Counted from the first letter of the stretch, positions 26,459 to 38,902 are shown. The stretch: DNA of 64,000 nucleotides from Candidatus Multivoradales bacterium (GCA_965223325.1 CBDCWI010000002.1:3488850-3552849), one strand, 5' to 3'. The notes: generated from the letters alone by a model not told the origin. A program made the numbers and translations.

Positions 26459-27115
26459 GTGCTCTTCTTTCTCGACACTGCGGATCTTGAAGAAATCGAG
26501 ACCGGCCTCTCCTGGGGCATGGTCGACGGCATCACGACCAACCCGAGCCTGATCGCCAAACAGGGCAAGCCCTATCTGCCGACCGTCAAGGCGATCACCG
26601 AACTCGTGCCCGGCCCGGTCAGTGGCGAGGTGCTGGCGACCGACGAGGAAGGCATGCTCGACCAGGGCCGTCGGCTGGCGGGGCTTGCCGACAACGTGGT
26701 CGTCAAGCTGCCCCTTGGGCCGGTGGGCTTGAAGGTCGCTCAGCAGCTGCACGAAGAGGGCGCGAGAACCAACGTGACGCTCTGTTTCTCGGCCAACCAA
26801 GCGCTCCTGGCAGCCAAAGCCGGTGCAACCTACATTTCGCCCTTCGTCGGTCGTCTCGATGACGTTGGCCACGACGGAATGGAGCTGATTCGCGAGATCG
26901 TCCAGATCTACTCGAACTACAACTACCCAACGCAGGTCCTGGTGGCCTCGGTGCGCAACCCGCTGCACGTCACCCAGGCAGCCCTGATGGGCGGCGACGT
27001 GGTGACCATCCCGTTCAAGGTCCTCTCACAGCTCTACAAGCACCAGCTCACCGACCTCGGGCTCGACCGCTTCCTCGCCGACTGGGAGAAGACCGGCCGC
27101 AGCTTCGACGACTGA
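26459..27115 (+). CDS. tal: Short-form transaldolase / fructose-6-phosphate aldolase family protein
   Basis: GTG start preceded by GAAGGAGACGGAG. LFFLDTADLEEI N-terminus. Schiff-base lysine context VVVKLPL. About 218 aa. Confidence 0.8.
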   Translation: MLFFLDTADLEEIETGLSWGMVDGITTNPSLIAKQGKPYLPTVKAITELVPGPVSGEVLATDEEGMLDQGRRLAGLADNVVVKLPLGPVGLKVAQQLHEEGARTNVTLCFSANQALLAAKAGATYISPFVGRLDDVGHDGMELIREIVQIYSNYNYPTQVLVASVRNPLHVTQAALMGGDVVTIPFKVLSQLYKHQLTDLGLDRFLADWEKTGRSFDD

Positions 27116-27123
27116 CGAGAACC

Positions 27124-27846
27124 TTGATGGAAGCGCACGAGCGCTTCGAAGGCGGCCAGCTCTATCGCGCGGCCTGGGTCTTCTACCTGCTGCTGGCGAC
27201 TGCCGGGATCGTCTGGGTCGGCCTGCGCGAGGGCCCGATTCCAGTCGAGCTCTTCTTCGACTCGTCTCGTTGGTGGATCGACCTGGCGCTCGGTGTTCTC
27301 GTCGGCGCTCTTCTCATCGGCTTCTCGTGGGGTGCGGAAGCCGTCGTGCCCGCCGCGCGCGGGCTGCGCGACATGCTGGTCGCGCGGCTGGGCCGGCTTC
27401 CTTCCGACGAGGTCCTCGGCATCGCCGTGCTCTCCGGTTTCGCCGAAGAACTCTTCTTTCGGGGCGCCGTACAGGGGTCGCTCGGGTTATTGTGGGCGAC
27501 GCTTCTGTTCGCCGTGCTACACGCCGGTCCCGGCCGCGGCATGGTCGCGTGGGCGCTCTTTGCAGCCGTCGCAGGCTTGGCCTTCGGTGGCATCATGGAG
27601 TGGACGGGCAACCTGCTTGCCCCGGTCACGGCCCACATGCTGGTCAACGCAGTGGGCCTGTGGCGCCTGGGCCGGCTGGCCGAGGAAGGCGTATCGCCCG
27701 AGGGCGCGGCGGAGTTCCCAGAGGCAGGGCCCTCGGAGACGGAACCTTCGGACACAGAACCCTCGGAGAGGGCACCCTCGGAGAACGGGAGAGAGGGCGA
27801 GAACACGACTTCGAGACAGGGAGAGGCCGATGACAGAGACCCATGA
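27124..27846 (+). CDS. CPBP-family (CAAX protease / Abi-like) intramembrane metalloprotease with a Glu/Pro/Ser-rich repetitive C-terminal tail
   Basis: Motifs EELFFRG (EExxxR), LFAVLHAGP (FxxxH) and HMLVN. Multiple TM segments. The tail reads PSETEPSDTEPSERAPSENGREGE. Confidence 0.75.
   Translation: MMEAHERFEGGQLYRAAWVFYLLLATAGIVWVGLREGPIPVELFFDSSRWWIDLALGVLVGALLIGFSWGAEAVVPAARGLRDMLVARLGRLPSDEVLGIAVLSGFAEELFFRGAVQGSLGLLWATLLFAVLHAGPGRGMVAWALFAAVAGLAFGGIMEWTGNLLAPVTAHMLVNAVGLWRLGRLAEEGVSPEGAAEFPEAGPSETEPSDTEPSERAPSENGREGENTTSRQGEADDRDP
27730..27789 (+). repeat. Four tandem 15-bp units (ccctcggagacggaa / ccttcggacacagaa / ccctcggagagggca / ccctcggagaacggg) encoding the CPBP C-terminal tail
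   Basis: Direct reading of the sequence. The repeat is in frame (15 = 5 codons). Confidence 0.8.
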
Positions 27847-29227
27847 CATCCTCGAACGGCTCGCGGGCCACGAAGAGCAGCACCTCGAGACGCTCCTCGA
27901 CTACCTTCGTATTCCCTCTGTCTCGACGGATCCGGCCTACCGAGACGACGTTCGCCGCTGTGCTGGTTTCGTTCGTGACCAGATGATCGCCGCCGGGCTC
28001 GAGGCGCGCATCATCGAAGCCTCCGAGGCGGGAGTGCCCGAGGGGCACCCGCTCGTCTACGGTGAGTGGATGGGCGCACCCGGGAAGCCAACGCTCCTGT
28101 TCTACGGCCACTACGACGTGCAGCCGCCCGACCCTCTCGATGCGTGGGACAGCCCGCCCTTCGAGCCAACCATCACCGACGGCCGGATCGTTGCTCGCGG
28201 CGCGACCGACGACAAGGGGCAGTCGCTGACCCACGTCCTGGCGGTGGGCGAGTTGCTGTCGGCGCGCGGTGAGTTGCCAGTCAACGTGCGCTTCCTGGTC
28301 GAGGGCGAAGAAGAGGCCGGCGGCGAGACCATCGAAGCCTGGGTGCGTGGAGCCGGTCGCGACCGCCTCGAGGCCGATGCGGTCGTGGTTTCCGACACCT
28401 CAATGCTCGCTCCCGGCTGGCCGTCGCTCATCTACGGCCTGAAAGGCATGCTCTACACCCAGATCGACGTACGCGGGCCGAACCGGGACCTGCATTCGGG
28501 TAGCTTCGGAGGGGCGGTACAGAACCCCGGTAACGCCCTTGCGACGATCGTCGGCGCCTTGCGCGACCCGCACACCGGCCGCGTCCAGATCCCCGGCTTT
28601 TATGACGACGTTCTGCCGCTCGAAGACTGGGAGCGCGAAGGCTTTTCTGCCATCGAGTTCGACGAGGAGGCCTACTGCGCCGAGATCGGTATACCGGTTG
28701 CTACCGGCGAACGCGGCTACAGCACGCGCGAGCGCGCCTGGGCGCGGCCGACCTGTGACGTCAACGGCATGTGGGGTGGGTACTCGGGCGAAGGTGCCAA
28801 GACAATCATCCCGGCAAGCGCCGGCGCCAAGGTGTCGATGCGGCTCGTTCCCGGTCAAGACCCAGAGAAGATCGAGCGCCTCTTTCGCTCCTACGTCGAA
28901 GCGTTGACACCTGACGGCGTAGAAGTCGAGGTGACGGCGCTTTCGGCGGCCGAAGCGGTGCTCGTCGACGTCCAGGGGCCGATCGCCGAGGCCGCTCTTT
29001 CCGCCCTCGAAGACGAATGGGGGCGCGCCCCGGCGAAGGTTCGCGAAGGCGGCTCGATTCCGATCGTCGGCGACTTTGCACGCGAACTCGAAGCACCTGT
29101 CTTGCTGATGGGCTTCGGCCTTTCCGACGATCGACTGCATGCGCCCAACGAGAAGTTCGAGGTCGCGCACTTTCACGCCGGGATTCGCACCATCGCGCGC
29201 TTTATCGATCGGGTTGGTGCTCTCTGA
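27830..29227 (+). CDS. M20-family metallopeptidase (dipeptidase / succinyl-diaminopimelate-desuccinylase-like)
   Basis: ORF 27293..29227. I trimmed it to ATG 27830 (MTETHDILERL...). The RBS is GGGAGAGG. There is a 17-bp overlap with the CPBP gene. M20 metal ligands: HYDVQP, GATDDKG, EGEEEAGG, SIP...H. Confidence 0.8.
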   Translation: MTETHDILERLAGHEEQHLETLLDYLRIPSVSTDPAYRDDVRRCAGFVRDQMIAAGLEARIIEASEAGVPEGHPLVYGEWMGAPGKPTLLFYGHYDVQPPDPLDAWDSPPFEPTITDGRIVARGATDDKGQSLTHVLAVGELLSARGELPVNVRFLVEGEEEAGGETIEAWVRGAGRDRLEADAVVVSDTSMLAPGWPSLIYGLKGMLYTQIDVRGPNRDLHSGSFGGAVQNPGNALATIVGALRDPHTGRVQIPGFYDDVLPLEDWEREGFSAIEFDEEAYCAEIGIPVATGERGYSTRERAWARPTCDVNGMWGGYSGEGAKTIIPASAGAKVSMRLVPGQDPEKIERLFRSYVEALTPDGVEVEVTALSAAEAVLVDVQGPIAEAALSALEDEWGRAPAKVREGGSIPIVGDFARELEAPVLLMGFGLSDDRLHAPNEKFEVAHFHAGIRTIARFIDRVGAL

Positions 29228-29246
29228 GTCGCCGAGGAAGACGCTC

Positions 29247-29846
29247 GTGGTAGGCGACGGCGATGCGGCAGGGCCCCAAGGAACAGCGGTCGAGCGTGAG
29301 CTCAAGATCGCAGTTGCACACGTCGACACGGTTCGCGCCGCGGTCGAGGCGGCGGGTGGCGAGTACCTGCACGGCCCGAGTTTCGAAGACAACGTGATCT
29401 TCGATCGCGACAGCCGGCTCTACTCGCGCAGCGAGGTCTTGAGATTGCGCACCGACGACCGAGGCTCACGCCTGGCCTGGAAGGGCGCGGCGCACTTCGA
29501 GGACGGGGTCAAGGTCCGCGATGAGCACGAGGTGGCGCTCGATGACCCGGACGCGATCACTGCCATTCTCATCGCCATTGGCTACCAGCCGGTGCGTCGT
29601 TATCAGAAGATTCGCGACGAGTGGCTTCTAGGCGGCTGTCACGTGGCCCTCGACCAGACGCCCATGGGCCACTACGTCGAGGTCGAAGGCGACGAGCCGG
29701 GCGCGGTCTTCGAACTCCTGGGCCTCGATCCAGAGCAGGCCGAGCCGCGTAGCTACCTCAGCCTCTGGAACGACCACCGCAAAGAAAACCCCGAGGAGGG
29801 TGAAGACATGCTCATGCCCGAGCCACCGGCGAGGGGTGCCTCATGA
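29247..29846 (+). CDS. CYTH-domain protein (class IV adenylyl cyclase / triphosphate tunnel metalloenzyme-like)
   Basis: GTG 29247 after GAGGAAG. ERELKIAVAH... is the EhE-type start of CYTH folds. About 199 aa. Confidence 0.6.
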   Translation: MVGDGDAAGPQGTAVERELKIAVAHVDTVRAAVEAAGGEYLHGPSFEDNVIFDRDSRLYSRSEVLRLRTDDRGSRLAWKGAAHFEDGVKVRDEHEVALDDPDAITAILIAIGYQPVRRYQKIRDEWLLGGCHVALDQTPMGHYVEVEGDEPGAVFELLGLDPEQAEPRSYLSLWNDHRKENPEEGEDMLMPEPPARGAS

Positions 29847-30898
29847 GCCGCGCCCCGTACCGAGTCCGGGGCATCGTGGTCGCCGGAGCGGCGGGTCGCC
29901 GCCTCGAGCCGCTCACCAGTTTCGTGCCACCGCTCCTCCTGCCAATTACCGGCGGTCCGGCAATTCGATTTACCCTGCGGGCACTCGAGCGTGCCGGAGT
30001 CGAGCGTGCGACCCTCGTCCTCGGTCCGGAGGGCGAGCGCGTCGAGCGCGTGCTCGGCGACCATTTCGGAGAGCTACCGCTCGACTACAGTCACCGCGAG
30101 ACCGCCGTTGGTTCGTTCGAGGCGTTCAAGGAACTGCCGGACGGTGCGGCAGCGGCCGACGCTCTGGTGGTCGTCGATGCCACGGCGCTTTGCCGCTGGC
30201 CGCTCAAACGCATGTTGCGTCGCCACCGCAAGCGCGAGGCCGATGCGACCCTGCTGCTTTCGAAGCGCGCACGGCCCGCGGAAGAGTCTGGTGTCGTGAC
30301 CGTCGGCCAGAAGGGGCAGATCCTCGCCCTCCGTGACGCCGACCTCGATCTCGAGGCCGGCGAGAAAACCCGCCGGCTGGTGTTTGCGGGTGCCCAGGTG
30401 CTGTCGCCAAAGCTGGTTGCCCAGGGAGGGCCGCGCGGAGACCTCATGCGTGATCTCTACGAGCCACTGATGATTGGCGGCGGCAGGCTGCAGACGGTTA
30501 CAACCGGGCGGCATTGGCACCGCGTCACCAGCATCCGGCGCTACCGCGAGGCAGCGTGGGACTGGGCACACGGCCGTTGGCCACTGCGCGCCTTTCGCTC
30601 GCGCTGGATCGCCTCGGAGGCACGTCTCGGCAACCGCGTCCGCATTCGGCAGAGCGTTCTCGAGGGTGGCGTCGAGGTCGGCGACCGTGCCCGCATCGAT
30701 CGCAGTTCGGTTCTTCCGGGAGCGCGCATTGGCGCCGGTAGTCGGGTCGAGGGGTCGATCATCGCGCCGGGAGTCGAGCTCCCCGAGTCGACACGCGTCT
30801 CGGGTCGCCTGGTCACGCCGCTGACAGCGGGGCGCGACCCCGGCGCCAACGACTCGGTCGTTGGCAAGCTCGTCTATACGCCGATCGGAAAGCGCTGA
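29843..30898 (+). CDS. Sugar-phosphate nucleotidyltransferase (NTP_transferase fold plus C-terminal left-handed beta-helix hexapeptide repeats)
   Basis: GIVVAGAAGRRLEPLT...P is the G-x-G-x-R-L motif. The C-terminus has repeated [LIV]-G-x-x-x-x-[LIV] hexapeptides (RVRIRQSVLEGGVEVGDRARIDRSSVLPGARIGAGSRVEGSIIAPG). Confidence 0.7.
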   Translation: MSRAPYRVRGIVVAGAAGRRLEPLTSFVPPLLLPITGGPAIRFTLRALERAGVERATLVLGPEGERVERVLGDHFGELPLDYSHRETAVGSFEAFKELPDGAAAADALVVVDATALCRWPLKRMLRRHRKREADATLLLSKRARPAEESGVVTVGQKGQILALRDADLDLEAGEKTRRLVFAGAQVLSPKLVAQGGPRGDLMRDLYEPLMIGGGRLQTVTTGRHWHRVTSIRRYREAAWDWAHGRWPLRAFRSRWIASEARLGNRVRIRQSVLEGGVEVGDRARIDRSSVLPGARIGAGSRVEGSIIAPGVELPESTRVSGRLVTPLTAGRDPGANDSVVGKLVYTPIGKR

Positions 30899-30899
30899 G

Positions 30900-31562
30900 G
30901 TGGCAAGACCCCACCTCGTGGTCTTCGACTGGGACGGCACCCTCTCCGACTCGGTCGGAGCGATCGTTGGCTGCGCTCAGGAGGCATTGGCGGCCGCCGG
31001 GCTCACCGGCCGCGACGAAGACATCCGTCAGACCATTGGCCTGGGCCTCGATGTCTCGGTGCCGCGCTGGAGCCCGGGCATCAGCGAGGCCGACCAGGCC
31101 AGGGTGCTGGCTGCCTATCGTTCGCGTTGGATCGGCCATTGGTCTGCCACTGGAGGCTTGTTCGAGTTCGCCCCCACCCTCCTCGCCGCGCTCGCAGAAG
31201 ACGGCCACCTGTTGGCGATTGCTACCGGCAAGAGCCGCGCTGGCCTGGTTCGCGACCTCGACAAAGCCGAACGGGTCGGAACGCCCGTCCGGCGAATGTT
31301 TGCCGGCTCGCGCACCGTCGACGAAGCGCCAGCGAAACCGGCGCCCGGCATGCTGATCGAGCTCATGGATGAGCTCGGGGCGCGGCGCGAGACAACGATC
31401 ATGGTCGGCGATACGACGCATGACCTCGAAATGGCGCGTGCCGCAGGCTGTGTTTCCGTCGGCGTCCTCTCGGGTGCGATGGAGAGCGAAGAACTCGCCC
31501 CCCTTGCCGACGAAGTGCTTCCCGATGCCGCGGGGCTCTTGCAGTGGCTGGCGAGGCGGTGA
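30900..31562 (+). CDS. HAD-superfamily hydrolase (phosphatase, phosphoglycolate-phosphatase-like subfamily)
   Basis: GTG 30900 directly after the upstream stop. Motif I VVFDWDGTL. Motif IV MVGDTTHDLEMARAAG. Confidence 0.75.
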   Translation: MARPHLVVFDWDGTLSDSVGAIVGCAQEALAAAGLTGRDEDIRQTIGLGLDVSVPRWSPGISEADQARVLAAYRSRWIGHWSATGGLFEFAPTLLAALAEDGHLLAIATGKSRAGLVRDLDKAERVGTPVRRMFAGSRTVDEAPAKPAPGMLIELMDELGARRETTIMVGDTTHDLEMARAAGCVSVGVLSGAMESEELAPLADEVLPDAAGLLQWLARR

Positions 31563-32638
31563 CCACTCCGCGCATTCTCGGCGTGGCGCACGCGTTGCCC
31601 GAGCACTACTACGACCAGGAAACGCTTCTCGCCCGTCTCGAAAAGGAATGGCAGGCGAAACACTACAACCCCGATCGACTACGCCGCTTGCATGAAAACG
31701 TTCTGGTGGGCGGCCGCCATTTGGCACTACCGATTGAGCGTTACGACGCGCTCTCAGGCTTCGGTGCCACCAACGATGCCTGGATCGAAGCGGCGTTGGC
31801 GCTCGGCGAGCGAGCTGTCACCGCCGCTCTCGAGGAAGCCGCGGTTTCAGTGGGCGAGGTTTCGGCAATGTTCTTCGTGTCCGTCACCGGCCTGGCGACT
31901 CCGTCGCTCGACGCCCGCCTGATGAACCGGATCGCCTTCAAACCGGACCTCAAGCGTATCCCGATCTTCGGCCTCGGCTGCCTCGCCGGTGCGGCGGGAA
32001 CCGCGCGCGCCAGCGAGTACGTGCGCGCCTTTCCAGGCGAAGTCGCGGTTCTGCTCTCGGTCGAACTGTGTTCGCTGACCCTGCAGCGCGAAGACCTTTC
32101 GATTCCCAACCTGATTGCGAGCGGCCTGTTCGGCGACGGTGCAGCGGCAGTGGTGCTGGGCGGAGAGAATCGTGCAAGTTCAGAGCACCCGTTAGTCGTC
32201 GACACGGCGTCTTCGTTCTACCGTGACACCGAAGGGGTGATGGGCTGGCAGATCAGCGAGCGCGGTTTTCAAGTGGTGCTGTCGGCCGAGGTTCCGAAGA
32301 TGGTCGACACCCACCTTCGTCGCGACGTCGATGCGTTTCTCGCTCGCCACGGCTTGACCGTTGCGGAGATCGAGCACTGGGTTTGTCACCCCGGTGGACC
32401 GAAGGTTCTAGAAGCCATGGCGCGGACCCTCGAGTTGCCCGCCGCCGCCCTGGAGCGCACCTGGCGTTCGCTACGCGAAGTCGGCAACCTGTCTTCGACC
32501 TCGGTGCTCCTGGTACTTGAAGAAACCCTGCGCGAGGGAGCGGCTCGCCCGGGAGACCACGGCGTGATGCTTGCCATGGGGCCAGGGTTCTCTTCCGAGC
32601 TGGTCCTGCTTCGATGGCCCGGGGAAGAATCGCGATGA
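31544..32638 (+). CDS. Type III polyketide synthase (chalcone/stilbene synthase superfamily)
   Basis: Catalytic Cys in FGLGCLAGAAG, His in HWVCHPGGPKVL, Asn in VGNLSSTSVLLVL. About 360 aa. GTG start at 31544 or 31559, overlapping the HAD stop. Confidence 0.9.
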   Translation: MAGEAVTTPRILGVAHALPEHYYDQETLLARLEKEWQAKHYNPDRLRRLHENVLVGGRHLALPIERYDALSGFGATNDAWIEAALALGERAVTAALEEAAVSVGEVSAMFFVSVTGLATPSLDARLMNRIAFKPDLKRIPIFGLGCLAGAAGTARASEYVRAFPGEVAVLLSVELCSLTLQREDLSIPNLIASGLFGDGAAAVVLGGENRASSEHPLVVDTASSFYRDTEGVMGWQISERGFQVVLSAEVPKMVDTHLRRDVDAFLARHGLTVAEIEHWVCHPGGPKVLEAMARTLELPAAALERTWRSLREVGNLSSTSVLLVLEETLREGAARPGDHGVMLAMGPGFSSELVLLRWPGEESR

Positions 32639-33204
32639 GCGCCTCACAAGTCCTCTTCCTGGCGCTCACGGGCCTTGTAGCCATCGAGCGCCTCGTCGAA
32701 CTACGCGTTTCGACCAAGAACGCACGCCGCGCCCTGGCGCAGGGGGCGGTTGAAACTGGCCGGGGCCACTACCCCTTCATGGTGGCCATGCACACCGCGT
32801 TTCTCGTTGCCGCGCCCCTAGAGGTCCTGCTCCTCGACCGTCCCTTCAGCCCGCTTCCCGCCGCGTTGATGGTAACGCTGGTTCTCCTGGCGCAGGCTCT
32901 GCGCTGGTGGACGATTCACACCCTGGGCGATCGCTGGACGACGCGCATCATCTGCCGCCCGGGGGACCGGGTGGTCAAAGGCGGCCCATTCCGTTTCCTG
33001 CGCCACCCCAACTACCTGGCGGTGGTGATCGAGATGCTCGCACTGCCAATGGTGCACAACGCATTCGTCACGGCGATTCTCTTCTTTGTCCTCAACGGTC
33101 TGGTGTTGCGCGCTCGCGTGGCTGCCGAAGAGGAGGCGCTGGGGCGCCTCACCGATTGGGACTCGGTTTTCAGTGCCGGTCGCGAGCGCGGTAGGGCACA
33201 ATGA
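32614..33204 (+). CDS. Membrane methyltransferase of the isoprenylcysteine carboxyl methyltransferase (ICMT) / phospholipid methyltransferase family
   Basis: RHPNYLAVVIEMLALP and the EE...L C-terminal motif. About five TM segments. The start is probably ATG 32635, giving an ATGA overlap with the PKS stop. Confidence 0.8.
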   Translation: MARGRIAMSASQVLFLALTGLVAIERLVELRVSTKNARRALAQGAVETGRGHYPFMVAMHTAFLVAAPLEVLLLDRPFSPLPAALMVTLVLLAQALRWWTIHTLGDRWTTRIICRPGDRVVKGGPFRFLRHPNYLAVVIEMLALPMVHNAFVTAILFFVLNGLVLRARVAAEEEALGRLTDWDSVFSAGRERGRAQ

Positions 33205-33503
33205 CCGAGGAAACCCGTCGCAGAGCGACCGTATGCGAGATCCTGTCCCTTGCCGCTGAGCTGGTTCCGGGCCAGGTAGCGACCGATCTCGAAGAACGAA
33301 TGGAACGCGGTTTACCCTCCGAGGATCTGCGCGTGGTTGAAGACCTCGGCCTCGACTCCGTCACGCTCCTGACCCTCGCTGTCGAGGTCGAAGATCATTT
33401 CAAGGTCTGCCTCGACGCCGATGACGAGGAGGCCATCGTGACCCTCGGCGATCTCGCCGACATAGTCTTGAGAAGAAAGTCTTCGACCGGCACCACTCTC
33501 TGA
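33201..33503 (+). CDS. Acyl carrier protein (phosphopantetheine-binding)
   Basis: LGLDSVTLLTL matches the DSL-type phosphopantetheine attachment site. About 100 aa, acidic. ATGA overlap with the upstream gene. Confidence 0.75.
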   Translation: MTEETRRRATVCEILSLAAELVPGQVATDLEERMERGLPSEDLRVVEDLGLDSVTLLTLAVEVEDHFKVCLDADDEEAIVTLGDLADIVLRRKSSTGTTL

Positions 33504-33509
33504 GGCCCC

Positions 33510-35363
33510 ATGACCATCTCCCGAACACTGACCGCTGCCCTCTATGACGCGGGCCGTTCGCAACGCGGCGCCGAGACCGGCTTGCGCTTTCTCGATCGTC
33601 ACGAGCGCGAAGAACTGGTTACCTGGAACGAAATCTGGAAGCGCGCCCGCGCCTTGCAACAGGCGCTTGCGGGAGAGGGCGGGGCGACCGGGCAGGCCGG
33701 GGTGGTGCCCGGCCAGCGCATCGCGATCATCTACCCGACCGTGCCAGGCTTCTTCGACGCCTTTTTAGGTGTCTTGATGGCCGGGGCGATTCCGGTGCCG
33801 CTTTATCCGCCCGTGCGCCTGGGGCGCCTTGACGAGTACCACCGCCGGACCGCACGGATGCTTGATCTGGTCGATGCCACGGGTGTCTTGGCCGACACCG
33901 GTGTGGCACGCCTTCTCGGCGAGACGCTGGCAGCAAGTGCAGCCCGGCCCTGGCTCTTGACGCCACGTGACCTGCGGCCGGTGTCAACTGCCCGCGACAC
34001 GGAGTCCGGCGCCCCACGCTGGCCGCCGCCGATCCATGCCGATGGTGGTGGGTTGGCGATGGTTCAGTTCTCCTCGGGGACGACGCGCGAGCCCAAGCCG
34101 GTGGCGCTCAGCCACCGGGCGGTTCTCGCTCAGGCCCGCATGCTGGCGAGTCATTTTCCAGACGGCGGCCGAGGAGGAGACGCTGGGCGCACCCAGAGCG
34201 GCGTCAGCTGGCTGCCGCTCTACCACGACATGGGTTTGATCGGCTGCGTGTTCACAGCCCTGGTGCGTGCTGCCGACCTCACCCTTTTGCCACCCGAAGC
34301 GTTCCTCGCCCGTCCGGCGCTCTGGCTGCGGGCGATCTCGAAGGCTCGCGCCACCGTTTCGCCGGCGCCAAACTTCGCCTACTCACTGTGTGTCGATCGC
34401 ATTCGCGACGAAGAGCTCGAGGGAGTCGATCTGTCGTCCTGGCAGGTGGCGCTCAACGGTGCCGAAGCGGTCACGCCAGGGGTCTTGCGTCGCTTCAGCG
34501 AGCGCTTTGGCGCCTGGGGCTTCAGGGCCGAAGCTCTAACGCCGGTCTATGGCCTCGCCGAGGCTTCGCTAGCGGTGACGTTTTCTCCCCCCGAGGAGCG
34601 CTTCTTGATCGAACGTTTCGACCAACAGCAACTCGAAACGCGGGGGCTTGCCGAACCGCTTGCGGCGGGCTCGGAAGAGTCGGCGGTCGAGCTGGTCTCG
34701 GTTGGTCGCCCCGTGCCGGGCTTCGACCTCGAGATTCGAAGCGAAGAAGGCAGGCAGCTGCCCGAGGGTGAGGTCGGCGAGATCTACACGCGCGGCCCGT
34801 CGCTCATGGCTGGCTACCTGGGAATGCCCGAAGAGACCGAGCAGGCGCTCGAAGACGGCTGGCTGCGAACAGGGGATGAAGGCTTCGTCTTTGGCGGCGA
34901 CCTCTATGTCACCGGCCGCACCCAGGACCTGGTGATCGTTCGTGGTCGCAACCACTCTCCCGAGCTCATCGAAGAGGCTGCTTCGCGGGTCCCGGGTGTG
35001 CGCACGGGGTGTGTCGTTGCGGCCGGTCATCGCTTCGAGGCGCAGGCGACCGAGTCGCTCGTGGTCTTTGCCGAGCGTGCGCGCGGCGAACGTCCGGTTG
35101 ACGCCCTGATCGAGAGCGGCGTTCGAGGCGAGGTGCTTTCTGCGGTGGGGCTCGAACCCGGCGAGGTGATTCTGCTCGAGCCCGGCGTACTGCCGCGGAC
35201 GTCGTCGGGCAAGCTCCGGCGCCGAGAGGCCCTCAAGCAACACCTCCAGGGGCAGCTCGAGGCGCGGCCCGGCCTGTCGCCGGTGCGGCTGGCGCTTGCT
35301 TTGTGGCGTTCGGCGCGCGCTCGCCGAATTCTGTCCCGAAGCCTGCCGCGCGAGCGCTCGTGA
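33510..35363 (+). CDS. Fatty acyl-AMP ligase / acyl-CoA synthetase-like adenylating enzyme
   Basis: AMP-binding motifs VQFSSGTTREPK, YGLAEAS, TGD...GR and the SGK of the A10 region (PRTSSGKLRRRE). An insertion typical of FAAL-type enzymes. Confidence 0.85.
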   Translation: MTISRTLTAALYDAGRSQRGAETGLRFLDRHEREELVTWNEIWKRARALQQALAGEGGATGQAGVVPGQRIAIIYPTVPGFFDAFLGVLMAGAIPVPLYPPVRLGRLDEYHRRTARMLDLVDATGVLADTGVARLLGETLAASAARPWLLTPRDLRPVSTARDTESGAPRWPPPIHADGGGLAMVQFSSGTTREPKPVALSHRAVLAQARMLASHFPDGGRGGDAGRTQSGVSWLPLYHDMGLIGCVFTALVRAADLTLLPPEAFLARPALWLRAISKARATVSPAPNFAYSLCVDRIRDEELEGVDLSSWQVALNGAEAVTPGVLRRFSERFGAWGFRAEALTPVYGLAEASLAVTFSPPEERFLIERFDQQQLETRGLAEPLAAGSEESAVELVSVGRPVPGFDLEIRSEEGRQLPEGEVGEIYTRGPSLMAGYLGMPEETEQALEDGWLRTGDEGFVFGGDLYVTGRTQDLVIVRGRNHSPELIEEAASRVPGVRTGCVVAAGHRFEAQATESLVVFAERARGERPVDALIESGVRGEVLSAVGLEPGEVILLEPGVLPRTSSGKLRRREALKQHLQGQLEARPGLSPVRLALALWRSARARRILSRSLPRERS

Positions 35364-36619
35364 CCACAGCGGCCAGCGGCCCGCAGGTGGTGGTGGTGGG
35401 CGCTGGACCAACCGGCCTGGCTGTGGCCATTGGTCTTGCGCGCTCAGGAGTTCGCGTTCGGGTTCTCGAGCGCCGGCGCCTGGCCGAACCGGGCGCTGGC
35501 CTCGACAAGCCCTGCGGCGAGGGGTTGATGCCCGACGCGGTGGCTCATCTCGAGCAACTGGGCGTCGATCTACGGCGGTTACCCAGGGCGCCGTTCGGGG
35601 GCATTCGATGGTTCGATACCGAATCGGGCGCGTCGGTCGAAGGGCGCTTTCCCGGGGGGCCGGGCCTGGGCGTCCGGCGAACGGTGCTCTATCGTGCGCT
35701 GATTGAGCGGGCGCAAGAAGTGGGCGTCGGGGTTTCGTACGGCGAACGAGGCGTGCGGTTGATCGAGCAGAGCCCGAACCGTTATGCGTTGGTGACCGAC
35801 GCGCGGCGGTACGAGCCGGCGGCGATCGTGGGCGCCGATGGCCTACGCTCGCGGCTGCGAAGCGATGCGGGTCTCCTGGGGCGATCTCGTTTCCAGACAG
35901 AGCGATTTGGAATCAGGCAGCACTTCAGCCTGCCGCAGCCATGGTCGAAGAAAGCCCGACCGGCGGTCGAAGTGTTCTGGGCCGACCGGGCCGAGGCCTA
36001 CGTAACACCGGTCGGGCCGTCTGAGATCGGCATCGCATTGCTGTTCGAGAAGGCGGCACCCGGAGCGGCGCCAACTACGGGCGAACCACCCTTTCAGCGT
36101 CACATGGCGCGTTTCCCGGCCCTTGTCAAAAGGCTCGAAGGTGCCACCCCGGTGTCGAAAGCGCTCGGGACCGGACCGCTGGCCCAATCCGCCCGTGCGG
36201 TGGCCGTACGCAATCTGTTCCTGGTTGGAGATGCTGCCGGCTATGTCGACGCCATCACCGGCGAAGGCCTGGCGGTTGGTTTCGGGGAAGCGCATCACCT
36301 GGCCGGCTGCTTGGCACCGCTGGCTGGTTGTTCAAGCAATGCGCATGAGATCATTGCCGGCGCCCGTCGCGAGTACCCGGTGCACTCGCGGCGAACTCGC
36401 AGGCGCCCCGAGCTCCTGACGCATGCCGCCCTCCGTTTGTCGCGCTCGCGCAGGCTTCGGCGTAGCGTCATCCGCGGCCTGGCTCGCCGGCCTGTCGCCT
36501 TTGACCGGATCCTGGCGCTGCACGTTGGCGAAGGAAAACCATCGGACGCGCTCGGAGAGCTCCTCCCCATCGTCCCCACGCTTGCCCTCGCCCTGTTGCG
36601 GCGACGCTCGCGGAGCTGA
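35303..36619 (+). CDS. FAD-dependent monooxygenase (aromatic-ring hydroxylase type)
   Basis: Probable GTG start at 35360 (GTGA overlap with the upstream stop). GxGxxG VVVVGAGPTGLAVAIGLARSG. GD motif LVGDAAGYVDAITGEGL. Confidence 0.8.
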   Translation: MAFGARSPNSVPKPAARALVTTAASGPQVVVVGAGPTGLAVAIGLARSGVRVRVLERRRLAEPGAGLDKPCGEGLMPDAVAHLEQLGVDLRRLPRAPFGGIRWFDTESGASVEGRFPGGPGLGVRRTVLYRALIERAQEVGVGVSYGERGVRLIEQSPNRYALVTDARRYEPAAIVGADGLRSRLRSDAGLLGRSRFQTERFGIRQHFSLPQPWSKKARPAVEVFWADRAEAYVTPVGPSEIGIALLFEKAAPGAAPTTGEPPFQRHMARFPALVKRLEGATPVSKALGTGPLAQSARAVAVRNLFLVGDAAGYVDAITGEGLAVGFGEAHHLAGCLAPLAGCSSNAHEIIAGARREYPVHSRRTRRRPELLTHAALRLSRSRRLRRSVIRGLARRPVAFDRILALHVGEGKPSDALGELLPIVPTLALALLRRRSRS

Positions 36620-36625
36620 TTTGAC

Positions 36626-36645
36626 ATGCAACCTTAGGGTTGCAT
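36626..36645. promoter_or_regulatory. Inverted repeat ATGCAACC-ttag-GGTTGCAT immediately upstream of the ArsR-family gene, overlapping a TTGACA hexamer (36621-36626)
   Basis: The arms are exact reverse complements. It sits 1 bp upstream of the ATG. Metalloregulator operators are typically such dyads, used for autoregulation. Confidence 0.4.
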
Positions 36646-36975
36646 ATGGTCTCTGCCATCGTGAACCAAGTGTTCGAGGCCATTGCAGATCCGACGCGGC
36701 GACAGATTCTGGGCTACATCCAGGAGTCGGGCCCGCTGTCGGTCAACGAAGTTGCCGAGCCCTTCTCGATCAGTCGCCAGGCGGTCACCAAGCACCTCGA
36801 TGTGCTTTCGAGGGCCGGCCTTGTGCACGTCGAGCGCAGCGGTAGACATCGACTGCACCACGTCGACCCCGCGCCGCTCCGCGCTGTGGCCGAGTGGCTA
36901 GAGCCGTACTCGGCGGCATGGGACGAGCGGTTAGCGCGCCTCGAGAAGTTCCTCGACGACCACCCGGAGGGATAG
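36646..36975 (+). CDS. ArsR/SmtB-family HTH transcriptional regulator
   Basis: ADPTRRQILGYIQESGPLSVNEVAEPFSISRQAVTKHLDVLSRAGLV is a canonical ArsR winged-helix block. Confidence 0.8.
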   Translation: MVSAIVNQVFEAIADPTRRQILGYIQESGPLSVNEVAEPFSISRQAVTKHLDVLSRAGLVHVERSGRHRLHHVDPAPLRAVAEWLEPYSAAWDERLARLEKFLDDHPEG

Positions 36976-36982
36976 AGACGAA

Positions 36983-37402
36983 ATGGACCGAAACGTCATC
37001 GAAAAGAGGCTCGAGCTCGAAGCCTCGCCCGAGCGAGTATGGAAGGCGATCACCGACCCAGAAGAGGTCAAGCAGTGGTTCGGTGACGGCTGCTCGTGGA
37101 AGCTCGAGCCGGGCCACAACGGGTATCTGTCGTGGCAGAAGTACGGGCGTTTCGCGGTACGCATCGAAGCGGTCGAGGCGCCCAGGAGCCTTGCGTGGCG
37201 GTGGACGAGCCGCGCCGATACGCCGATCGAGGCCGACAACTCGACCCTGGTGGAGTGGGAGCTCCGCCCGCGAGACGACGGCGGAACCACATTGTTGCTG
37301 CGCGAGAGTGGGTTCCAGACTCCCGAAAGCTGGAAGGAGAACAACGAGGGTTGGGACGAAGAGCTCGGCGAGCTGTGCGTTTTGCTTGGCGCGCAGGCCT
37401 GA
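36983..37402 (+). CDS. SRPBCC-superfamily protein (AHSA1 / activator-of-Hsp90-ATPase-homologue-like)
   Basis: The beginning reads WKAITDPEEVKQWFG. About 139 aa. The ArsR + AHSA1-like pair is a frequent gene couple. Confidence 0.65.
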   Translation: MDRNVIEKRLELEASPERVWKAITDPEEVKQWFGDGCSWKLEPGHNGYLSWQKYGRFAVRIEAVEAPRSLAWRWTSRADTPIEADNSTLVEWELRPRDDGGTTLLLRESGFQTPESWKENNEGWDEELGELCVLLGAQA

Positions 37403-37405
37403 GGG

Positions 37406-38902
37406 TCAGGCCAGCACCGAGAGCTCGGTCTGGCAGCGCGGTAGCCGGCTGGCGGTGCCCGTCAGGTACTCGTCGATAGCGGCAGCCGCCCCGCGGCCTT
37501 CGTTGATTGCCCAGACCACGAGGCTCTGCCCGCGGCGGCAGTCGCCGGCGGCGAAGACTCCTTCGGCCGAGGTGTTGAAGCGCCCGTACGGGGCGCTGAT
37601 GTTTGAGCGCTCGTCGGTTTCGAGACCAAAGGCCGCAGCGAGGGTCGCTTCGGGGCCGAGAAACCCCATCGCCAAGAGCACAAGGTCTGCCTCGAACGTT
37701 TCGTTGCTACCGGGCACTTCCTGCATCGCGAAGCGACCGCCGGCGCCCTTCGTCCATTCCACCCGAACGGTTTCGATGCCGGTGACATGACCGTTGTCAT
37801 TGCCGATGAAGCGCTTCGAGAGCACGTTGTACTCCCGTGGATCCCGGCCGAAGCGCGCCTCGGCTTCGCTGTGACCGTAGTCGACCCGAAAGATGCGTGG
37901 CCACAACGGCCACGGGTTGTCGGCAGCGCGCTCCTCAGGTGGACGATCGAGCAGTTCGAAGTTGACCATCGACCGGCAGCCGTGGCGAATCGACGTGCCG
38001 ATGCAGTCGGTACCCGTGTCGCCGCCACCGATCACCACGACCCTTCTGCCTTCGGCAGAAAAGAATCCCGCGCTGGGCTCTCTATCGAGCAACGAGCGCG
38101 TGTTCTCGGTCAGGAAGTCCATCGCGAAGTGAATGCCGTCGAGATCGCGACCAGGGATCTCGAGGTCGCGCGGCCTGGTCGCACCGCAGGCCAGAAGAAG
38201 TGCGTCGTGGTTCTGCCGGAGCGCCTCTGGGTCGACGTTCACGCCAACGTCCGCGCCAGTCTCAAAGGTCACGCCTTCGGCCTCCATCAGATTCAACCGG
38301 CGTTCGACGACGCGACGCTTGTCGAGCTTCATATTGGGAATGCCATACATCAGAAGCCCGCCCGGGCGGTCCTCGCGTTCAAAGACGGTCACTGTGTGGC
38401 CGGCGCGATTGAGTTGGTCTGCAGCCGCAAGGCCCGCCGGGCCGGAGCCAACGATCGCTACCGTCTTGCCAGAACGTTCGTGCGGCGGCCGCGGCTCGAC
38501 CCAGCCTTCGGCGAAACCGCGGTCGATGATCGCGTTCTCGATGTTCTTGATCGTCACCGGCGGCGAGGTGATGCCGAGGACACAGGAACCCTCGCAGGGT
38601 GCTGGGCACACGCGGCCGGTGAACTCGGGGAAGTTGTTGGTGCGGTGGAGTCGGTCGAGAGCAGTCTTCCAGCGCCCGCGATAGATCAGGTCGTTCCATT
38701 CGGGAATCAGATTGTCGACCGGGCAGCCGGTATCTGACTGGCAGAAGGGAACGCCGCAGTCCATGCAGCGCGCTCCCTGGCCACGTAGATGTTCCTCCGC
38801 AACCGGCTCGTAGAACTCGCGCCAATGTTCAATGCGCCGCAGCGGATCGGCGTACGGCACAGTCTGCCGATCGATCTCGAGAAACCCCGTCTTCTTGCCC
38901 AT
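37406..38902 (-). CDS. gltD: Glutamate synthase (NADPH) small subunit
   Basis: ORF 37406..39157. I trimmed it to ATG 38902 ([13 protein letters not shown]...). Fe-S Cys clusters: [21 protein letters not shown](P)-binding [11 protein letters not shown] and [10 protein letters not shown]. Confidence 0.9.

Follow-up and report, generated by a model that had tools for sequence, protein, structure and literature searches.

The 64,000-nucleotide stretch of DNA analysed here (the window), from a Candidatus Multivoradales bacterium, very probably carries an ordinary ftp-type phenolic-lipid cassette that sits behind an unrelated, conserved housekeeping block, as the result of a rearrangement and not of an extension of the lipid pathway. 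Two modules would be joined head-to-tail. Module A (~26459-31562), made up of tal and the genes for CPBP, M20, CYTH, nucleotidyltransferase (NTase)-like and HAD proteins, would be part of a housekeeping array anchored by gyrB-gyrA, and module B (31544-36619) would be the cassette.

Extent and junctions of the gene run

Ten genes, all in one direction (+), occupy positions 27124-36619. The ten domain calls made for them earlier were reproduced by Pfam above gathering scores, and NCBIfam was consistent (Table 1). The junctions are either overlaps of 4-17 nt (19 nt with the alternative PKS start) or gaps of no more than 20 nt. The CPBP and M20 genes overlap by 17 nt, the CYTH/NTase junction is an ATGA, and the HAD gene opens with a GTG 1 nt past the NTase stop. 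HAD and PKS meet at a GTGA, or in a 19-nt overlap if the alternative PKS start is used; ATGA recurs at PKS/ICMT and at ICMT/ACP, the FAAL gene follows the ACP gene at +6 nt, and the junction of FAAL with the flavoprotein gene (FMO) is again GTGA. Inspection of the junctions bore out the ATGA/GTGA overlaps that had been predicted at PKS/MT, MT/ACP and FAAL/FMO, as well as the placement of the HAD gene, whose start abuts the NTase stop and whose end overlaps the PKS start. Independent gene calls on the 98% identical contig of strain L085 gave the same starts, including that of CYTH at 29217. Since the HAD and PKS genes overlap in the window, modules A and B are probably co-transcribed there and, on sequence alone, might also be linked in function.

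Upstream, tal lies 8-11 nt from the CPBP gene, so the tight run comprises 11 genes and truly starts at 26459; tal is its first gene and represents context, outside the cassette. The run ends at 36619, just before a promoter-like site which turned out to be the sole sigma-70-like match in 23.5-37.5 kb (14 kb). The ArsR regulator and AHSA1/SRPBCC genes that follow are a separate unit downstream of the run. A search for Rfam elements in 20-40 kb of the window found none. In locus L003, the ArsR and AHSA1/SRPBCC pair is absent downstream of the cassette.

Table 1. Features of the gene run and its immediate downstream region (positions in the window)
Feature	Position	Strand	Evidence
tal, fructose-6-phosphate aldolase-type transaldolase	26459..27115	+	PF00923 TAL_FSA on orthologous gene calls; translation
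CPBP (Rce1-like) intramembrane protease	27124..27846	+	PF02517, E 7.8e-14
M20 dipeptidase	27830..29227	+	PF01546 + PF07687; NF006053 dipeptidase 518 bits, above cutoff
CYTH (triphosphate tunnel) protein	29217..29846 (29247 also possible start)	+	PF01928, E 2e-11, above cutoff
GMPPB-like NTase + LbH protein	29843..30898	+	PF00483 (NTP_transferase), 52.9 bits
HAD-IA phosphatase, phosphoglycolate-phosphatase-like	30900..31562	+	PF13419, E 2e-23
Type III PKS, FtpA/PKS11-like alkylresorcinol/alkylpyrone synthase	31559..32638 (alternative start 31544)	+	PF00195, PF02797
Membrane ICMT-family methyltransferase, FtpB/SrsB-like	32635..33204	+	PF04140, E 2.5e-27
Stand-alone acyl carrier protein (ACP), FtpC-like	33201..33503	+	PF00550 above cutoff
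Predicted fatty acyl-AMP ligase (FAAL), FtpD-like	33510..35363	+	PF00501, E 4e-55
Class A FAD-dependent monooxygenase/oxidoreductase, FtpE/SrsC-like	35360..36619	+	PF01494 (FAD_binding_3), E 2e-20
Promoter-like site	36621..36650	+	TTGACA, 18 nt, TATGGT; encloses palindrome ATGCAACC-TTAG-GGTTGCAT
ArsR-type HTH regulator	36646..36975	+	PF12840/PF01022; same gene call on L085
AHSA1/SRPBCC protein	36983..37402	+	PF08327; same gene call on L085

The cassette and its predicted product

The gene order PKS-MT-ACP-FAAL-flavoprotein, with tightly linked junctions, is that of the M. xanthus/Mor1 comparison (PMC5006271). Domains, order and overlaps all support the original prediction, according to which 31544-36619 is a translationally coupled ftp-type cassette. 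Homologs of the PKS bear the names alkylresorcinol/alkylpyrone synthase. The closest solved structure is the long-chain-acyl-primed Mtb PKS11 (4JAO), which aligns over the full length with 326 bits and has an identical triad context: Cys (GLGCLAG), His (HPGG) and Asn (GNLSS) match the PKS11 positions, the Cys column being confirmed by the C138S mutant chain 4JAT. The genomic setting differs, as flanking type I PKS genes are found in mycobacteria. Scores elsewhere are 207 bits for CylI, 160 for THNS, 124 for PKS18 and ~100-120 for plant CHS. Judged by bit scores against solved structures and by homolog names, the PKS belongs with bacterial enzymes primed by long-chain acyl groups and not with chalcone/stilbene synthases. 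Affiliation with chalcone-type enzymes, named beforehand as the outcome that would speak against the cassette, is countered by the 326 bits for PKS11 vs. ~110-120 bits for chalcone synthases.

The methyltransferase has the ICMT 4A2N as its top PDB match, and the ACP translation carries the phosphopantetheine-serine motif LGLDS. For the FAAL gene, the top NCBIfam model is the fatty acyl-AMP ligase model NF006624 with 410 bits (model cutoff 600), a typical FACL model reaching 179 bits. Among PDB structures, its 11 top relatives are either FAALs or close homologues that carry older names (7R7E, 3PBK, 3KXW, FadD32, FadD23), followed at lower rank by FadD28, two NRPS-type adenylation domains and McyG. 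The flavoprotein is closest in the PDB to UbiI/VisC (4K22), and its top NCBIfam model is that of the geranylgeranyl-reductase family (106 bits, below cutoff). Because this model scores best, the proposed role of the flavoprotein as a ring hydroxylase rests on analogy.

By analogy with Myxococcus ftp, Streptomyces srs and Mycobacterium pks10, FAAL would adenylate a long-chain fatty acid and load it onto the stand-alone ACP. The type III PKS would then extend the acyl-ACP starter with ~3 malonyl-CoA and either cyclise the chain to an alkylresorcinol or alkylresorcylic acid, or lactonise it to an alkylpyrone. The membrane ICMT-family enzyme would methylate the PKS product and the flavoprotein would hydroxylate the ring, to yield a methylated alkyl-benzoquinone-type membrane lipid.

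It is also conceivable, albeit on balance unlikely, that the cassette is correctly recognized and its chemistry is different, the end product being an alkylpyrone in place of a resorcinol-derived quinone and the flavoprotein being a reductase in place of a ring hydroxylase. PKS11 is an alkylpyrone-forming enzyme, with methyl-branched alkylpyrones as its reported products, and the best NCBIfam model of the flavoprotein points to a reductase. Similarly, a homologous myxobacterial BGC is catalogued as alkylpyrone (MIBiG BGC0001831; PMC12766979). However, oxidation to alkylquinones has been reported for the products of FtpA and SrsA (PMC10896814), PKS10/PKS11-type enzymes have likewise been linked to quinones derived from alkylresorcinols, the pks10 operon of Msmeg giving polyketide quinones (PMC5916927), and the top solved relative of the flavoprotein, UbiI, is a phenol hydroxylase.

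As compared to M. xanthus ftp, the window has the same five predicted functions in the same order and, as predicted, the same FAAL/ACP priming logic, a likeness judged on function and order. The M. xanthus operon, reportedly described by Hayashi et al. in 2011, is said to encode the type III PKS FtpA, the methyltransferase FtpB, the ACP FtpC, the FAAL FtpD and the oxidoreductase FtpE. For the acidobacterium Mor1, a cluster of this kind, its genes in identical order and with 47-58% identity to the M. xanthus pathway, has already been described (PMC5006271); the cassette type is known, including from an acidobacterium. Streptomyces griseus srsABC (roles given in PMC6669644), the M. smegmatis pks10 operon and cyanobacterial/planctomycetal hidABC-type operons likewise combine an alkylresorcinol synthase of type III with a methyltransferase, of the ICMT family or another, and with a flavin oxidoreductase. 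Those systems give methylated alkylresorcinols or alkylquinones (PMC6669644, PMC5916927, PMC10896814) and are three-gene and acyl-CoA-primed, whereas the window adds its own predicted FAAL and ACP. Most Thermoanaerobaculia cassettes have an extra small gene upstream (139-186 aa) and some have YceI/MMPL downstream, both of which the window lacks.

Block and cassette across Thermoanaerobaculia

The sample comprised 80 NTase-centred loci from 80 species of Thermoanaerobaculia (Acidobacteriota), 61 of them informative for PKS distance. The pattern used in the genome scan, [ND]G[DT]SLCRWP, retrieves canonical NTases only, so that the degenerate clade discussed below is under-sampled. The arrangement gyrB-gyrA-(tal)-CPBP-M20-CYTH-NTase-(HAD) is kept nearly everywhere in the 80 loci, with orthologs of CPBP in 65, of the M20 dipeptidase in 77 and of CYTH in 79. 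The window CYTH protein has an intact N-terminal ExExK (ERELK), and its conserved R/K/E positions align with the orthologs. The HAD protein retains motif I (FDWDGT, for DxDGT) and motif IV (GDTTHD, for GDxxxD). HAD is the least conserved member of the block, missing in L084, L053, L056, L019, L044 and others; in L084, the nearest species, the NTase gene overlaps the PKS gene directly.

In 29 of the 61 informative loci, at least the nearest 9 kb around the block hold no PKS, a negative that applies to the 9-10 kb of flank scanned. Another 30 have one at 2.9-10 kb, and in two the PKS directly adjoins the block. In most of the 30, as seen in the intervals examined, opposite-strand genes lie between block and PKS, the intervening minus-strand genes being DUF2911, ferrochelatase, Pyr_redox, metallophosphoesterase and radical SAM. 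When loci were centred on the PKS, the prefix was sought within 10 kb and not found in L001, L087 and L088; in L086 it lies 2.7 kb upstream of the PKS, with two minus-strand genes between. The grouping of prefix and cassette as one ten-gene operon or pathway found no support in this comparison, neither their co-occurrence nor their adjacency being conserved across the relatives.

The cassette is widespread in Thermoanaerobaculia. In about half of the informative species it lies no more than 10 kb from the block. This neighbourhood conservation is looser than chance, and we attribute the proximity to inherited synteny. Five lineages, divergent but belonging to a single clade, have NTase/HAD directly next to PKS, namely the window, L084, L003, L053 and L056, and direct fusion, on the sequences compared, is confined to this deep clade. 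There, the opposite-strand genes separating A from B would have been lost, so that B came to adjoin A, and the NTase would have lost its catalytic residues while being retained by selection.

The degraded nucleotidyltransferase and its meaning

Catalysis in RmlA, GlmU and GMPP involves a G-x-G-x-R...P-K signature, the Asp of (N/G)xD and the Asp of D-x-G. The family profile of the Thermoanaerobaculia orthologs has human GMPPB (7D72, E 4e-48) as its top match, and the window protein shares the NTase + LbH architecture of this GDP-mannose pyrophosphorylase family. Its motifs read AGAAGRR / PPL / AVGSFEAF / VDATAL / WHRVTSI, vs. the canonical AAGxGxR / PKP / LGTxGAL / NGDSL / WHDLGTP of the 80 orthologs and GGYGTR..PKP, NSD and DIG of GMPPB/RmlA. 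The catalytic Lys (GxGxR..PK) and both Mg-binding Asp (NxD, DxG) are missing, and the protein is probably a pseudoenzyme, closer in this respect to the non-catalytic paralogs GMPPA and eIF2B gamma/epsilon, known members of the fold; GMPPA and eIF2B are among the PDB matches. The residue comparison suggested earlier for this gene, run on the motifs, failed to recover the signature of an active sugar-1-phosphate nucleotidyltransferase. As compared to strain L085, there are 11 synonymous differences and 1 nonsynonymous one, and by this pN/pS from 12 substitutions the gene is still under purifying selection.

The dead NTase-LbH protein, perhaps together with CYTH, might have been recruited in the fused clade to regulate or scaffold the phenolic-lipid pathway as a non-catalytic partner, like GMPPA for GMPPB or eIF2B gamma/epsilon, which we consider improbable. 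Such a role would fit the full length and substitution pattern of the gene, the non-catalytic proteins among the PDB matches, the occurrence of degenerate motifs in three lineages only, all of them direct fusions (window/L085, L084 and L003), the overlap of the NTase stop with the PKS start in L084, and the new clade-specific conserved stretches common to the window and L084, e.g., LLPITGGPAxRFTLRALE. Yet L053 and L056 are fused to the cassette and have canonical NTases, the scan pattern biases the non-fused sample toward canonical motifs, the pN/pS comes from 12 substitutions, and the data fit just as well with a protein whose evolution was relaxed and later re-stabilised for a housekeeping role that has nothing to do with the pathway.

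Highly improbable is a single pathway of ten genes in which NTase and HAD, aided by CYTH, would supply an ftp-like phenolic lipid with an activated polar head group: the dense packing, in which the end of the HAD gene overlaps the beginning of the PKS gene, and the adjacency kept in the five fused lineages are in its favour, but 29 loci keep the prefix although at least the surrounding 9 kb hold no cassette, in ~30 more the cassette is set apart by opposite-strand genes, the cassette occurs without the prefix (L001, L087, L088), HAD is missing in three of the fused lineages (L084, L053, L056), and the catalytic Lys and both Asp are gone from the window NTase. Neither a glycosyltransferase nor a phosphotransferase for attaching a head group was found by Pfam among the ten genes. 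What the original prediction read as an unusual prefix that might supply such a group is a class-wide block downstream of gyrBA, present whether the cassette is near or not.

The sole unexpected item under the two-module reading is this NTase homolog, with its catalytic residues gone and purifying selection kept, seen only where it adjoins the PKS cassette. The case also calls for caution, as tightly packed, overlapping co-directional genes gave a housekeeping block the appearance of a biosynthetic extension, an impression which comparative synteny dispelled. In general, these data, of modest practical value, place in an uncultured lineage of Thermoanaerobaculia an ftp-type phenolic-lipid cassette whose product may serve as an alternative quinone or as a membrane lipid.

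Gene run and boundaries

The compact gene run at 27124–36619 is read, with good confidence, as two modules: a class-wide housekeeping array and a phenolic-lipid cassette of the ftp type. The two would have been brought together when intervening genes were lost in one lineage, and in the window they are probably co-transcribed. The original prediction had treated the ten genes as a phenolic-lipid cassette with an unusual prefix that could supply a head group. All ten of its domain assignments were recovered by an ORF map, Pfam and NCBIfam, and its overlapping junctions reappeared when in-frame start codons were listed at each gene boundary. The CPBP and M20 genes overlap by 17 nt, and ATGA or GTGA overlaps occur at CYTH/nucleotidyltransferase (NTase), HAD/PKS, PKS/ICMT, ICMT/ACP and FAAL/flavoprotein. 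One base lies between the NTase stop and the HAD GTG, and 6 nt separate the ACP and FAAL genes. The starts are identical in independent gene calls on the contig of a 98%-identical sister strain, L085 (ENA sample ERZ25072999). Because tal (26459–27115) lies only 8–11 nt upstream of the CPBP gene, the compact run comprises eleven genes; gyrA is another 91 nt upstream of tal.

Features of the gene run in the window, and selected genes in comparison loci from related genomes (L numbers)
Feature	Sequence	Coordinates	Evidence
CPBP/Rce1-like protease	window	27124–27846	ORF map, Pfam, NCBIfam
M20 dipeptidase	window	27830–29227	ORF map, Pfam, NCBIfam
CYTH	window	29217/29247–29846	ORF map, Pfam, NCBIfam
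NTP_transferase + left-handed beta-helix	window	29843–30898	ORF map, Pfam, NCBIfam
HAD-IA hydrolase	window	30900–31562	ORF map, Pfam, NCBIfam
Type III PKS	window	31544/31559–32638	ORF map, Pfam, NCBIfam
ICMT-family methyltransferase	window	32635–33204	ORF map, Pfam, NCBIfam
ACP	window	33201–33503	ORF map, Pfam, NCBIfam
AMP-binding/FAAL	window	33510–35363	ORF map, Pfam, NCBIfam
FAD_binding_3 flavoprotein	window	35360–36619	ORF map, Pfam, NCBIfam
Degenerate NTase	L084	8940–10004	
Degenerate NTase	L003	8117–9247	
Small protein 5' of PKS	L001	9582–10004	
Small protein 5' of PKS	L015	16988–17455	
Small protein 5' of PKS	L086	9494–9958	
Small protein 5' of PKS	L087	9563–9982	
Small protein 5' of PKS	L088	9444–10004	

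The promoter and terminator scan gave no signal in the HAD–PKS interval. Terminator-like matches (15 vs. 8.9 expected from shuffled sequence) were discounted, since the excess is modest and all lie within coding regions. An Rfam scan of 20–40 kb of the window matched no family. The run ends cleanly at the flavoprotein stop, 36619, with gltD and gltB downstream on the minus strand. Directly past this stop is a sigma-70-like match at 36621–36650 (TTGACA-18-TATGGT), the only one in the 14 kb scanned, which encloses an 8+8 palindrome, ATGCAACC-TTAG-GGTTGCAT. An ArsR regulator and then an AHSA1/SRPBCC gene with a weak Polyketide_cyc2 match follow, the unit spanning 36621–37402; the pair is not kept after the cassette in L003. 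Window and L085 diverge by 2–4% on both flanks and differ at 2 positions over ~6.9 kb (~32000–38900), a stretch running from mid-PKS through ICMT, ACP, FAAL, flavoprotein, ArsR and AHSA1 to gltD. Such near-identity points to strains that occur together having recombined recently, or else to a chimeric assembly.

Cassette enzymes and proposed chemistry

As judged from sequence, the cassette at 31544–36619 is, in gene set and order, the ftp arrangement. PDB relatives served as a proxy for FtpA–E, SrsA–C and ArsB/C. Among these relatives the PKS scores best with M. tuberculosis PKS11 (4JAO; 326 bits, alignment along the whole protein), then with CylI (207), THNS (160) and PKS18 (124); chalcone and stilbene synthases of plants reach about 100–120. 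The prediction of a PKS using long-chain starters stands: among the PDB relatives the enzyme does not cluster with those chalcone or pyrone synthases that work without such starters. All three catalytic residues, Cys, His and Asn, are retained in the alignment, and a C138S mutant chain fixes the Cys column. Fatty acyl-AMP ligase is the top NCBIfam model for the putative FAAL. Its eleven top-scoring PDB matches are either FAALs or close homologues that carry older names (7R7E, 3PBK from E. coli, 3KXW from Legionella, FadD32, FadD23); FadD28, two NRPS-type adenylation domains and McyG come lower down. The ACP translation carries the LGLDS serine, and the methyltransferase belongs to the ICMT family (Pfam; top PDB match 4A2N). 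For the flavoprotein, the closest solved relative is UbiI/VisC, a ubiquinone phenol hydroxylase; its top NCBIfam model, the geranylgeranyl-reductase family, scores 106 bits, below cutoff, and the UbiH-type hydroxylase model 60 bits. A DKPCGEG motif is also present. By analogy with SrsC/FtpE, the flavoprotein is a putative ring hydroxylase.

PMC10896814 describes the oxidation of alkylresorcinols from FtpA and SrsA to alkylquinones; srsB belongs to the ICMT family and srsC is a monooxygenase (PMC6669644). The pks10 operon of M. smegmatis yields polyketide quinones, which serve as alternative electron carriers (PMC5916927). By homology, the order would run from FAAL to ACP to type III PKS, the product of which would then be methylated and, after methylation, hydroxylated on the ring to give a quinone. 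An alkylpyrone is also a possible end product; PMC12766979 lists the homologous BGC of myxobacteria under alkylpyrone. The Entotheonella cep cluster consists of only two genes, PKS and MT. Homologs of the PKS at 65–71% identity come from Thermoanaerobaculia/Acidobacteriota metagenome-assembled genomes, as do the NTase homologs and all 80 retrieved loci, which assigns the window to an uncultured member of the class Thermoanaerobaculia. The phylum is already known to have a cassette of this kind, which is therefore not new to it.

Most Thermoanaerobaculia cassettes have, directly before the PKS, a protein of 139–186 aa with no Pfam match; the window's clade does not have this protein. Copies from distant loci are 33–47% identical to that of L001, whereas close loci reach up to 91%, and the protein is likely a sixth cassette member. 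Genes for YceI (lipid/isoprenoid-binding) and an MMPL transporter lie behind the flavoprotein gene in L086 (14707–17640) and L087 (19871–21050), a place where the window has nothing comparable; as an accessory or export module for the phenolic lipid they are a better candidate than the NTase/HAD prefix. A non-FMO replacement as fifth gene of L084 was ruled out (FMO ortholog, 42% identity). The fifth gene of L001 (13777–14964), in an unrelated context, encodes a 395-aa protein that has no Pfam match and does not resemble the flavoprotein of the window. L087 (11047–17211) shows an ICMT::ACP fusion call and three inserted S8 peptidase genes, and L088 (11632–14501) has lost ACP, FAAL and FMO.

Array and cassette in related genomes

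One genome per species was scanned with an NTase-ortholog alignment; the pattern used, [ND]G[DT]SLCRWP, finds canonical NTases only. Every window protein was then mapped by tblastn onto the 80 loci obtained, each with 10 kb flanks. Orthologs were found for gyrA (67/80), CPBP (65/80), M20 (77/80), CYTH (79/80) and HAD (65/80), many misses being contig ends. The PKS is absent for at least 9 kb downstream in 29 of the 61 informative loci, 6–10 kb off in 25, 2.9–6 kb off in 5, and adjoins the block in only 2 (L053, L056). The interval typically holds minus-strand genes (DUF2911, ferrochelatase, Pyr_redox protein, metallophosphoesterase, radical SAM enzyme), after which a small unknown ORF stands directly 5' of the PKS. 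Given these genes and the PKS spacing, block and cassette do not form one operon in most species but lie next to each other in divergent or convergent orientation. A literature search gave nothing useful on any known CYTH–NTase–HAD neighbourhood.

Seen from the PKS, the cassette of L001 (71% identity) lies in a wholly different neighbourhood, and in L087 and L088 the prefix was not found within 10 kb upstream. In L086 the block is 2.7 kb upstream, with two minus-strand genes between (PilZ, MscS-cNMP channel). L003 (68% identity) has the direct arrangement of the window; in L084, the closest distinct relative, NTase stop and PKS start overlap, and the HAD gene is absent. In a rough neighbour-joining tree of M20 and gyrA, a single deep clade unites window/L085, L084, L003, L056, L053, L044 and L019. 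Since the fused loci fall within it, direct fusion is a clade-specific rearrangement. L019 has lost the cassette and retained CYTH and a canonical NTase.

In L080 (11020–13000), ICMT-like and FMO-like genes come straight after the NTase, before gltD/gltB, and tblastn with the window proteins detected no PKS, ACP or FAAL in the locus; the pair is possibly what remains of a fused cassette after decay. The whole cassette is inverted relative to the NTase in L078 (5371–9300). In L086 (3565–5526), the gene calls give one 653-aa product that contains both an M20 peptidase and a CYTH domain; if real, it would be a fusion that links the two functionally inside the housekeeping block.

The nucleotidyltransferase and the role of the prefix

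The profile of NTase orthologs resembles GMPPB, matching the human protein 7D72 at E 4e-48. The motifs AAGxGxR, PKP, LGTxGAL, NGDSL and WHDLGTP occur in all scanned orthologs, as gathered with the canonical-only pattern; the window NTase has AGAAGRR, PPL, AVGSFEAF, VDATAL and WHRVTSI at these positions, and the proteins of L084 and L003 are likewise degenerate. In a direct alignment with GMPPB and RmlA, the window NTase has Pro in place of Lys, DAT in place of NSD and R-V-T in place of D-I-G; by established RmlA/GlmU/GMPP enzymology, these positions hold the phosphate-binding Lys and two Mg-binding Asp. With the catalytic Lys and both Asp lost, nucleotidyl transfer by the window NTase is improbable. 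The gene differs from that of L085 by 11 synonymous changes and 1 nonsynonymous change (pN/pS 0.035), and new conserved stretches are common to window and L084; it looks like a maintained pseudoenzyme and not a decaying gene. CYTH (ERELK) and HAD (FDWDGT, GDTTHD) keep intact motifs in the window. MurU/MupP-like cell-wall recycling roles for NTase and HAD were rejected, at NCBIfam scores of 42 and 36 bits vs. cutoffs of 250 and 359.

Degenerate NTases were seen in three lineages only, each with the cassette fused directly behind. Co-option of the dead NTase as a non-catalytic partner of the phenolic-lipid pathway is nevertheless a long shot: the restriction to fused loci is biased, because the scan pattern finds canonical NTases only, and L053 and L056 are fused, yet their NTase is canonical. 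It would be the more interesting reading if true. That the prefix supplies a head group to the phenolic lipid, as originally proposed, is hardly credible, since by Pfam none of the ten genes encodes a glycosyl- or phospho-transferase able to attach one, the NTase motifs are lost, the nearest distinct relative does without HAD, and block and cassette each occur without the other within 9–10 kb. The reading as housekeeping array plus ftp-type cassette thus amounts to the correct annotation of a known cassette, the neighbourhood of which had been over-interpreted.
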